Of a DNA stretch of 64,000 nt, positions 29,790 to 30,152 are shown one piece after another. The first letter of the stretch is position 1. Every line of letters begins with the position of its first letter. The DNA is from an uncultured delta proteobacterium (lineage in GTDB: Bacteria > Myxococcota > Myxococcia > Myxococcales > Myxococcaceae). A program made the position numbers and the translations under genes. The DNA lies in NCBI GenBank assembly GCA_963776345.1, contig CAVZMH010000018.1:96001-160000 (forward strand), read 5' to 3'. The notes below the pieces were generated by a model that had not been told where the DNA came from, ran no database searches, and saw only the letters and a list, made by a program, of their open reading frames with translations.

Positions 29790-30034
29790 GGTTCTGCTCC
29801 TTCGTGGTTGGGTGTTGCCTGGTGTGCCTGCGGGAAACCTTTCGGGCCCGGGCCGACCTGGCGGTCACTCGACGGCAGAAGAAGGAAACGTCAGCGAGTC
29901 TTCGTTGCGGGACTCAGGGACGCCGCTTCGACCCCGGGGAGGAGACCACCGTCTCCAGTCGGCCCCGGGCGTACGCCCCTGATCGTTCGGGAGAGGAGGT
30001 CGGTCAGCAACAGCACCGACAACAACACTCCCCC
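29790..30034 (-). promoter_or_regulatory. Structured 5' leader of the metY operon (candidate attenuator)
   Basis: Stems GTCGGT/ACCGAC, GGGGGAG/CTCTCCC, TCAGGGGCG/CGTCCCTGA, GGAGAC/GTCTCC and GAGTC/GACTC; anti-SD-like TTCCTTC at 29887-29881. Confidence 0.6.
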
Positions 30035-30120
30035 GCGACGGAGCGTCCGCCCGGGCCACGCATGGGCGTGGCCCCGCCGCGAATTCGCCCCATCTGGGAA
30101 GTGCTCTTCCTCACGGGCAC
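30004..30120 (-). CDS. Polycysteine leader peptide (uORF)
   Basis: Translates as MPVRKSTSQMGRIRGGATPMRGPGGRSVAGECCCRCCC*. Codons are TGT TGT TGT CGG TGC TGT TGC TGA. Alternative in-frame starts at 30114, 30093 and 30063. Confidence 0.75.
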   Translation of the reverse strand: MPVRKSTSQMGRIRGGATPMRGPGGRSVAGECCCRCCC

Positions 30121-30122
30121 GG

Positions 30123-30152
30123 ACGGTAATGACCGCCCGCGTCAGCTGTCAA
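30123..30152 (-). promoter_or_regulatory. Candidate sigma70-type promoter for the leader/metY operon
   Basis: TTGACA (30152-30147, overlapping the pepP stop), 18 nt, TACCGT (30128-30123). Confidence 0.55.

Follow-up and report, generated by a model that had tools for sequence, protein, structure and literature searches.

The window analysed here is a 64,000-nt stretch of DNA from an uncultured member of the Myxococcaceae (assembly GCA_963776345.1, contig CAVZMH010000018.1, positions 96,001–160,000), and positions are given in window coordinates unless a contig is named. It contains an operon of metY, a metX-like gene and a gene for a bifunctional aspartate kinase/homoserine dehydrogenase (AK/HSDH), preceded by pepP (Table 1). 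The metY product passes the cut-off of a family that includes O-acetylserine (OAS) sulfhydrylase, that is cysteine synthase, activity. The pepP and whole-length AK/HSDH assignments are best matches below their equivalog cut-offs, while the aspartate kinase domain of AK/HSDH passes TIGR00657. The metX and AK/HSDH genes downstream of metY mark this as a methionine operon.

Table 1. Features of the metY locus and of two further leader ORFs in the same genome.
Feature	Position	Strand	Remarks
AK/HSDH	24873..27347	-	NF006959, E 9.3e-203, below cut-off; TIGR00657 above cut-off
metX-like homoserine acyltransferase	27344..28495	-	best match TIGR01392, E 3.6e-68, below cut-off
metY, O-acetylhomoserine/O-acetylserine sulfhydrylase	28497..29789	-	TIGR01326, 654.6 bits (cut-off 495.1)
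metY Shine-Dalgarno (SD), GAAGGAG	29797..29803	-	
Structured relay domain	29850..29965	-	GGGCCGAC (29965-29958) pairs with GTCGGCCC (29857-29850); prediction only, alternative local folds possible
Candidate anti-SD/anti-start	29881..29898	-	CTCGCT (29898-29893) and TTTCCTTC (29888-29881); predicted to pair with metY SD and start
Long rod	29966..30053	-	predicted; G-P-G-G...Cys half of the ORF pairs with 40 nt past the stop
Leader ORF, 36 codons (111 nt)	30004..30114	-	GTG start, near-leaderless; two internal Met, six terminal Cys; TGA 30006-30004
Cys-codon run TGT TGT TGT CGG TGC TGT TGC	30007..30027	-	6 of 7 codons Cys
Hairpin I, over the Met doublet	30054..30073	-	8 bp, 4-nt loop; RNAalifold consensus, pairs checked in 21 type-A leaders
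Site of family Met-x-Met doublet, here ACG CCC ATG	30061..30069	-	first Met lost, second invariant in genus
Predicted -10 box, TACCGT	30123..30128	-	18 nt past -35; same -10 type precedes the cysteine synthase sister ORF
Predicted -35 box, TTGACA	30147..30152	-	motif only; overlaps pepP stop codon; invariant in 12/12 genus leaders
Cys-only sister ORF	G000:C16:463992-463915	-	same -10 type, GTG 9 nt later; ends in four Cys and Arg
Val/Leu/Ile leader ORF	G000:C22, about 434370-434100	-	ATG 38 nt past TTGACA; U-tract terminator

An initial annotation of this locus had proposed that the gap between pepP and metY holds a TTGACA-N18-TACCGT promoter and a polycysteine leader peptide acting as a cysteine-sensing attenuator. 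The promoter sequence is as described, and both the TTGACA box and the 18-nt spacing are invariant in 12 of 12 leaders from the genus, but a consensus promoter scanner found no site at the metY leader. The GTG at 30120, originally listed as the start of the leader ORF, was rejected because it lies 2 nt past the -10 box, a distance that would leave it outside the transcript; the in-frame GTG at 30114, also pointed out there, is the conserved start, 8 nt past the box. Since the start sits 8 nt past the predicted -10 box in 8 leaders and 11 nt past it in 4, the sequence supports the description 'near-leaderless' and nothing stronger. A weak inverted repeat (30139-30121) contains the -10 box, and its letters are akin to a CCGTC/GACGG half-site palindrome that recurs near the metY promoters of L033, L034, L182, L015 and L016 and is perhaps an operator.

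The leader ORF has an additional ATG at 30093-30091 and ends as the initial annotation stated, with Cys at six of its last seven codons, four of them TGT, a codon with a share of only 9.2% (621/6,734) among the Cys codons of 1,832 long genes, crudely selected from the same genome. TGT is likewise used for 98 of the 142 Cys codons in the leader ORFs (uORFs) of the family. Among 99,162 stop-terminated frames of the genome, an ending with six Cys in the last seven codons occurs once, in the leader ORF itself, while five Cys occur in none and four in eight. Four of those eight were inspected; three look incidental and the fourth is a sister ORF discussed below. Six Cys is an extreme, with genus relatives carrying 3–5. 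The leader peptide matched no NCBIfam family, and Rfam gave no match within 29500-30500 at E up to 1, for which reason a by-eye likeness of the leader to the SAM-I/IV riboswitch was dropped. The share of sequence words in common with RNA sequencing runs was small (0.07 and 0.06). A pattern scan of metagenomes returned 36 matches, none near metY and all judged to be chance.

A metY orthologue is present in all 12 other genomes of the genus. Leader DNA matches, and the leader ORF is kept, in the same 12 of 13 genus genomes (this one counted), and in these 12 the Cys run ends at the stop, which had been set beforehand as the test of orthologous leaders; the exception, L017, has a different leader without such an ORF. 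Within the 12 leaders the start column alternates between GTG and ATG, the stop is always TGA, there are no internal stops, and terminal Cys-Cys is present throughout. Indels are multiples of three in 4 of 4 cases inside the ORF versus 2 of 25 downstream. Between the invariant ATG (30063) and the stop codon, 140 synonymous and 68 non-synonymous differences were counted in frame, compared with 53/160 and 80/158 in the other frames, although these counts are pairwise among kin and not independent, and so overstate the effect. The N-terminal half of the ORF drifts freely. Over the first 17 codons of the ORF synonymous changes are not favoured (61/326), which leaves room for translation to initiate at the invariant second ATG. 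Met-x-Met precedes R/H-G-P-G in 11 of the 12 ORFs, this genome alone having Thr-Pro-Met. An off-frame shadow of a Leu/Val run was rejected as the origin of the metY leader ORF, since the synonymous bias and the fixed stop sit in the Cys frame; such a shadow is genuine for an ilvB-like leader described below, where a second frame reads Cys-Cys. The pattern of conservation indicates that the leader ORF is probably translated.

Leaders were compared across the Myxococcaceae. A close metY is present in 84 of 201 sampled family genomes and 72 leaders were read, leaving out 11 leaders of genus g13 and one truncated match. In 58 of the 72 there is an ORF with at least two Met/Cys that starts 37–41 nt past a -35 box. 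Met-x-Met with a variable x is found in 57 of these 58 uORFs, the one without it being that of this genome, and terminal Cys-Cys in 20. Met accounts for 10.8% of internal codons in the ORF frame versus 0.1% in the two other sense frames, an enrichment that is partly circular as the ORFs were selected for at least two Met/Cys, and for Cys there is no such enrichment, with 9.3% in the ORF frame and 11.5% in the +1 frame. The promoter pattern failed to pick up an additional leader, L155, which has a Met doublet and seven Cys. The uORFs fall into two types. Type A (genera g1, g58, g33, g53 and loosely g54) has a Cys cluster at the ORF end, with terminal Cys-Cys also in g58 and g33 and up to 6 internal Met in some peptides; a profile built from 9 peptides of three other genera ranks the window ORF first of 84,193 genome frames (E 0.0047). 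Type B comprises 37 loci in seven genera, with ORFs of 22–25 codons that contain a Met doublet with a variable middle residue and 0–2 Cys (three have none), after which comes a CCCACC...GGTGGG hairpin that lacks a good U-tract. Residues other than the putative sensor codons are kept in both: type A has R-G-P-G and A-G-E, and type B has P-x-G-G and ends in A-G. Type-A peptides go undetected by a type-B profile, and protein and DNA profiles show no homology between the types, which agree in position and by eye only.

Of the remaining 13 leaders, L158 and L013 carry a SAM-I/IV riboswitch and eleven are without such an ORF according to the scripted search. The same riboswitch lies before metY-metX in L026 (Hyalangium versicolor, L026:3646-3830). 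Rfam at gathering score gave nothing in L020, L024 or six type-A loci. SAM-I was not found in the genome analysed here by a search whose control gave a signal in 3 of 14 cases, and SAM-I/IV gave no match there either, but its control was nowhere positive, which makes this negative uninformative. Past the riboswitch of L026, L158 and L013, and following directly on a small hairpin, lies a tiny ORF (starting Met-Cys-Arg-Cys or Met-Met-Cys) that may be a mini leader peptide acting in tandem with the riboswitch. Three loci beyond the family sample, L038, L039 and L247 (G293), have Met/Cys-rich ORFs followed by true U-tract terminators before metY-metX and are the cleanest cases for testing classical attenuation. 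A MetY tree of 34 rows recovers clades for type B (100/98), the riboswitch pair (100/99) and g1 with g58 (100/97); its backbone is without resolution and hence no order of events is claimed. In all leader types except g54, metX follows metY. Some leaders of genus g12 (L160, L161, L163, L164 and L165) have an ATG 38–39 nt past the -35 box that opens ORFs without Met or Cys, a spacing that may reflect the palindrome only. L201 (G060) has a Cys-rich short frame without a Met doublet before a metY of another clade, and the metY match holds one in-frame TGA in L156 and L162 (both g12).

The same genome has two further leader ORFs of related layout (Table 1). One has no internal Met and precedes a CysK/CysM-like gene (family matches below cut-off) that lies beside what we take to be a rhodanese-like gene. 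This arrangement is present in 11 of 13 genus genomes (L206-L210, L212, L214, L215, L217, L218 and L229), with the Cys run out of frame with its GTG in L212, and the query used did not recover it from two genus genomes that are incomplete. The other ORF is rich in Val, Leu and Ile codons and precedes a gene that is presumably ilvB-like; judged from its sequence, it is an ordinary classical attenuator, near-leaderless, and its U-tract terminator shows that the organism can make intrinsic terminators where they are used. Hence the codons match the pathway at each site, with Cys before cysteine synthase, Met and Cys before metY-metX, and Val/Leu/Ile before the ilvB-like gene, in the same 38-nt geometry. 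Leader peptides in this organism thus seem to share this geometry and to differ in codon content according to the pathway.

These comparisons bear on which amino acid is sensed. If the leader were a sensor of cysteine only, as first proposed, the Met codons of the lineage would be kept for the sake of hairpin I. This is consistent with the terminal Cys-Cys of all 12 genus uORFs and of g58 and g33, with the prevalence of TGT among the Cys codons, with the cysteine synthase activity covered by the MetY family and with the loss of the first ATG in this genome, which turned a U-G pair into C-G while the Cys run lengthened. However, the second ATG lies partly in the loop of the hairpin, yet is invariant, and 3 of 7 g58 leaders retain the ATG despite disruption of its pairing in the hairpin, which favours the codon over the structure. 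Type-A peptides with several internal Met, the Met-x-Met kept by all 37 type-B ORFs in a different RNA context, even where Cys is absent, and the sister ORF that has Cys but no Met also argue against a cysteine-only sensor, which we regard as improbable. The initial proposal holds in that the metY operon begins with a conserved leader ORF that is probably translated; the restriction to cysteine is not supported, given the far wider occurrence of Met-x-Met than of terminal Cys-Cys and an operon that makes methionine. The ORF is real and conserved and probably encodes a Met/Cys-sensing peptide rather than a pure cysteine sensor, and codon-based sensing of Met and Cys as such we consider likely.

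How such sensing might reach metY was addressed by RNA folding. The folding alignment has 11 distinct sequences (two rows are identical and one genus member is absent), and covariation was seen in 3 of 81 predicted pairs. In the predicted fold the apical loop of the long rod holds the stop codon, and a single compensatory change, from G-C to C-G, is found beside it. The 214 nt from the stop to the metY start include long stretches that are invariant within the genus, and many helices are predicted there. No intrinsic terminator was found by a scanner between the ORF stop and metY. The anti-SD tract was paired with the metY SD and start region in 7 of 7 modelled states. In L008, L009 and L012 the SD and anti-SD are both changed, perhaps in a single event, and each pairs better with its own partner (−15.9 kcal/mol) than crosswise (−9.5 kcal/mol), while 4 of 7 g58 leaders have CGTCCT, matching their own AAGGAC SD. 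In this genome the leader's own anti-SD:SD pairing has the lowest rank, and among the 12 genus leaders it comes first in only 5. Equilibrium folding was run with a ribosome footprint placed on every Met, every Cys or the stop, and no switch appeared; the metY SD cost 10.0–10.5 kcal/mol to open in 7 of 7 states, and the 12 leaders showed no shared trend. Among the 37 type-B leaders, a stall took the hairpin below 0.2 in 4 with one footprint size and in 1 with the other, and in L039 a stall at one Cys took the hairpin down. Equilibrium models ignore timing and thus neither show nor exclude a kinetic switch.

The lack of an intrinsic terminator, in a genome that makes U-tract terminators elsewhere, is also what would be expected if the same Met/Cys sensor acted through Rho-dependent or other U-tract-free termination, with a ribosome paused near the stop masking the C-rich RNA that lies behind it. 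The post-stop leader is 200–240 nt long and C exceeds G in 21 of 21 type-A leaders (here 0.37 versus 0.30), a comparison made without a genome-wide control of untranslated regions; relatives use terminators or terminator-like hairpins, and Rho has been proposed for the terminator-less cys leaders of Actinobacteria in the available part of PMC1262725. Against this, base pairing is predicted for the C-rich tracts, the SD and its anti-SD have changed in concert in two lineages, and the mycobacterial case that was tested was translational, according to the accessible text of bioRxiv 834739. We consider termination an unlikely output.

The invariant post-stop stretches with their many predicted helices, together with the failure of footprints to produce a switch, would also suit a conserved RNA, such as an unrecognised riboswitch or protein-binding leader, or a metal-binding Cys peptide, in either case without ribosome pausing. 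We give this little credence, as the frame-preserving indels, the GTG/ATG alternation, the invariant stop and the synonymous bias are those of a coding frame, Rfam is empty even at E up to 1, post-stop sequence similarity does not extend beyond the genus and many members of the family have no Cys cluster. Alternatively, SAM, homocysteine or another metabolite might cause the peptide itself to stall its ribosome, by analogy with TnaC and plant CGS1, which are examples of nascent-peptide arrest. Such arrest could account for the non-sensor residues kept in types A and B and for the alternation of the element with a SAM riboswitch, but the codons of these residues are explained by predicted RNA pairing, the G-P-G segment with RNA 24–37 nt past the stop and the type-B G-G codons in the hairpin. 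The freely drifting N-terminal half and the blindness of the type-B profile to type-A peptides also speak against a conserved arrest peptide, and we regard arrest as improbable.

We favour, tentatively and at a little short of an even chance, a ribosome-read attenuator for sulfur amino acids that combines codon sensing with a translational output. Transcription would start a few bases ahead of GTG 30114, and a ribosome would translate the 36-codon leader. When charged Met-tRNA or Cys-tRNA is scarce, it would pause at the internal Met codons, within hairpin I, or at the terminal Cys codons, within the rod, and the pause would alter the folds open to the 214 nt past the stop. The most likely final step is pairing, or its absence, between the pyrimidine-rich anti-SD and the ribosome-binding site of metY, and metX and AK/HSDH would follow through polarity. 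The logic of the Met codons is complicated because a shortage of Met also reduces initiation.

The metY leader position is taken by a SAM-I/IV riboswitch in L158 and L013 and by terminator-bearing Met/Cys ORFs in L038, L039 and L247. A broader reading, possible but held with somewhat less confidence than the attenuator itself, is that the Myxococcota have a modular sulfur ribulon in which a near-leaderless Met-codon sensor with lineage-variable Cys codons reads the charging of elongator Met-tRNA and Cys-tRNA, is exchanged for SAM-I/IV riboswitches and has a Cys-only twin. It would have at least three outputs, the long SD-hiding relay proposed here, a hairpin without a U-tract and a true terminator. 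A bolder version, in which the 214-nt post-stop domain is a metabolite-binding RNA of an unrecognised kind, coupled in series to the peptide sensor, is a long shot. If the modular reading is true, it offers a tractable case of methionine sensing via ribosome pausing, for which methionine is an awkward amino acid since the start codon needs it too. Natural variants with Met only, Met and Cys, Cys only or a riboswitch, several of them in single-contig genomes, make the question directly testable.

A literature search that did not extend to subscription journals, and thus not to the large attenuator surveys of the Lyubetsky group, turned up no description of Met/Cys leader peptides either upstream of metY or in myxobacteria, in keeping with the initial annotation, which knew of none in Myxococcota. 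In the literature covered, to the extent that it was accessible, methionine genes are under SAM riboswitches or DNA-binding regulators. The terms 'attenuat' and 'myxo' are absent from the available part of PMC4239095, as are methionine and cysteine from that of PMC4833913. The partial text of PMC4007540 (de Groot et al. 2014) describes leaderless ORFs of Deinococcus deserti that are likewise predicted as attenuators, including leaders of Cys-tRNA ligase and Met-tRNA ligase (Deide_09379), such that Met leader peptides are in print there as a prediction for one tRNA ligase. None of the 14 ORFs listed in that text precedes metY or metX, and its predictions are for single amino acids with mapped 5' ends, whereas the 5' end here is predicted. 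The cys leader peptides of Actinobacteria (Seliverstov et al. 2005, PMC1262725) share the Cys run near the stop and the lack of a terminator; the part of that paper available reports no conserved RNA elements before methionine operons in Actinobacteria, unlike the Met codons and candidate anti-SD found before a methionine operon here.

The closest likeness, borne out as the initial annotation suggested, is to the mycobacterial polycysteine leaderless sORFs Ms5788A and Rv2334A (bioRxiv 10.1101/834739). As far as the accessible text of that preprint goes, these share a short first ORF with an RUG start and consecutive terminal Cys, the absence of an intrinsic terminator, SD sequestration as the likely output, with stalling freeing an SD, and several independent loci per genome, here metY and cysteine synthase. 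The metY leader ORF is shorter than 150 nt and has at least two consecutive Cys upstream of an operon (111 nt, CCC-R-CCC), but its Cys codons are not the conserved sensor across the family. Its RTG start lies 8 or 11 nt past the predicted -10 box in 12 of 12 leaders, so that it may fall at or near the first base of the mRNA, and a candidate anti-SD is present, with no release in the equilibrium footprint models. The likeness is between different phyla and is one of layout, read here from sequence. In addition, conservation here is stronger for the Met doublet than for the Cys run, the genes downstream form a methionine operon and 214 nt of structured RNA separate the stop from the target start.

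The classical transcription attenuators of the trp, ilv and thr operons also have leader peptides with cognate codons, ORFs that overlap alternative hairpins and two amino acids per ORF. Their full layout with a U-tract terminator is seen in L038, L039 and L247, while the leader in the window, although enriched in codons for the amino acids of its pathway, has no intrinsic terminator before the first gene, and the 37 type-B leaders have a weak-tailed hairpin. The SAM-I/IV riboswitch (RF01725) occupies the same place before metY-metX in L158, L013 and L026 but senses a metabolite rather than tRNA charging. The metY leader departs from the mycobacterial sORFs in the Cys-only feature and from the classical attenuators in the terminator feature, and is therefore filed under neither. 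The principle is a textbook one; what is new is the little-documented amino-acid pair Met/Cys, and the extension of control by Cys-codon sORFs from Actinobacteria to a Gram-negative phylum.
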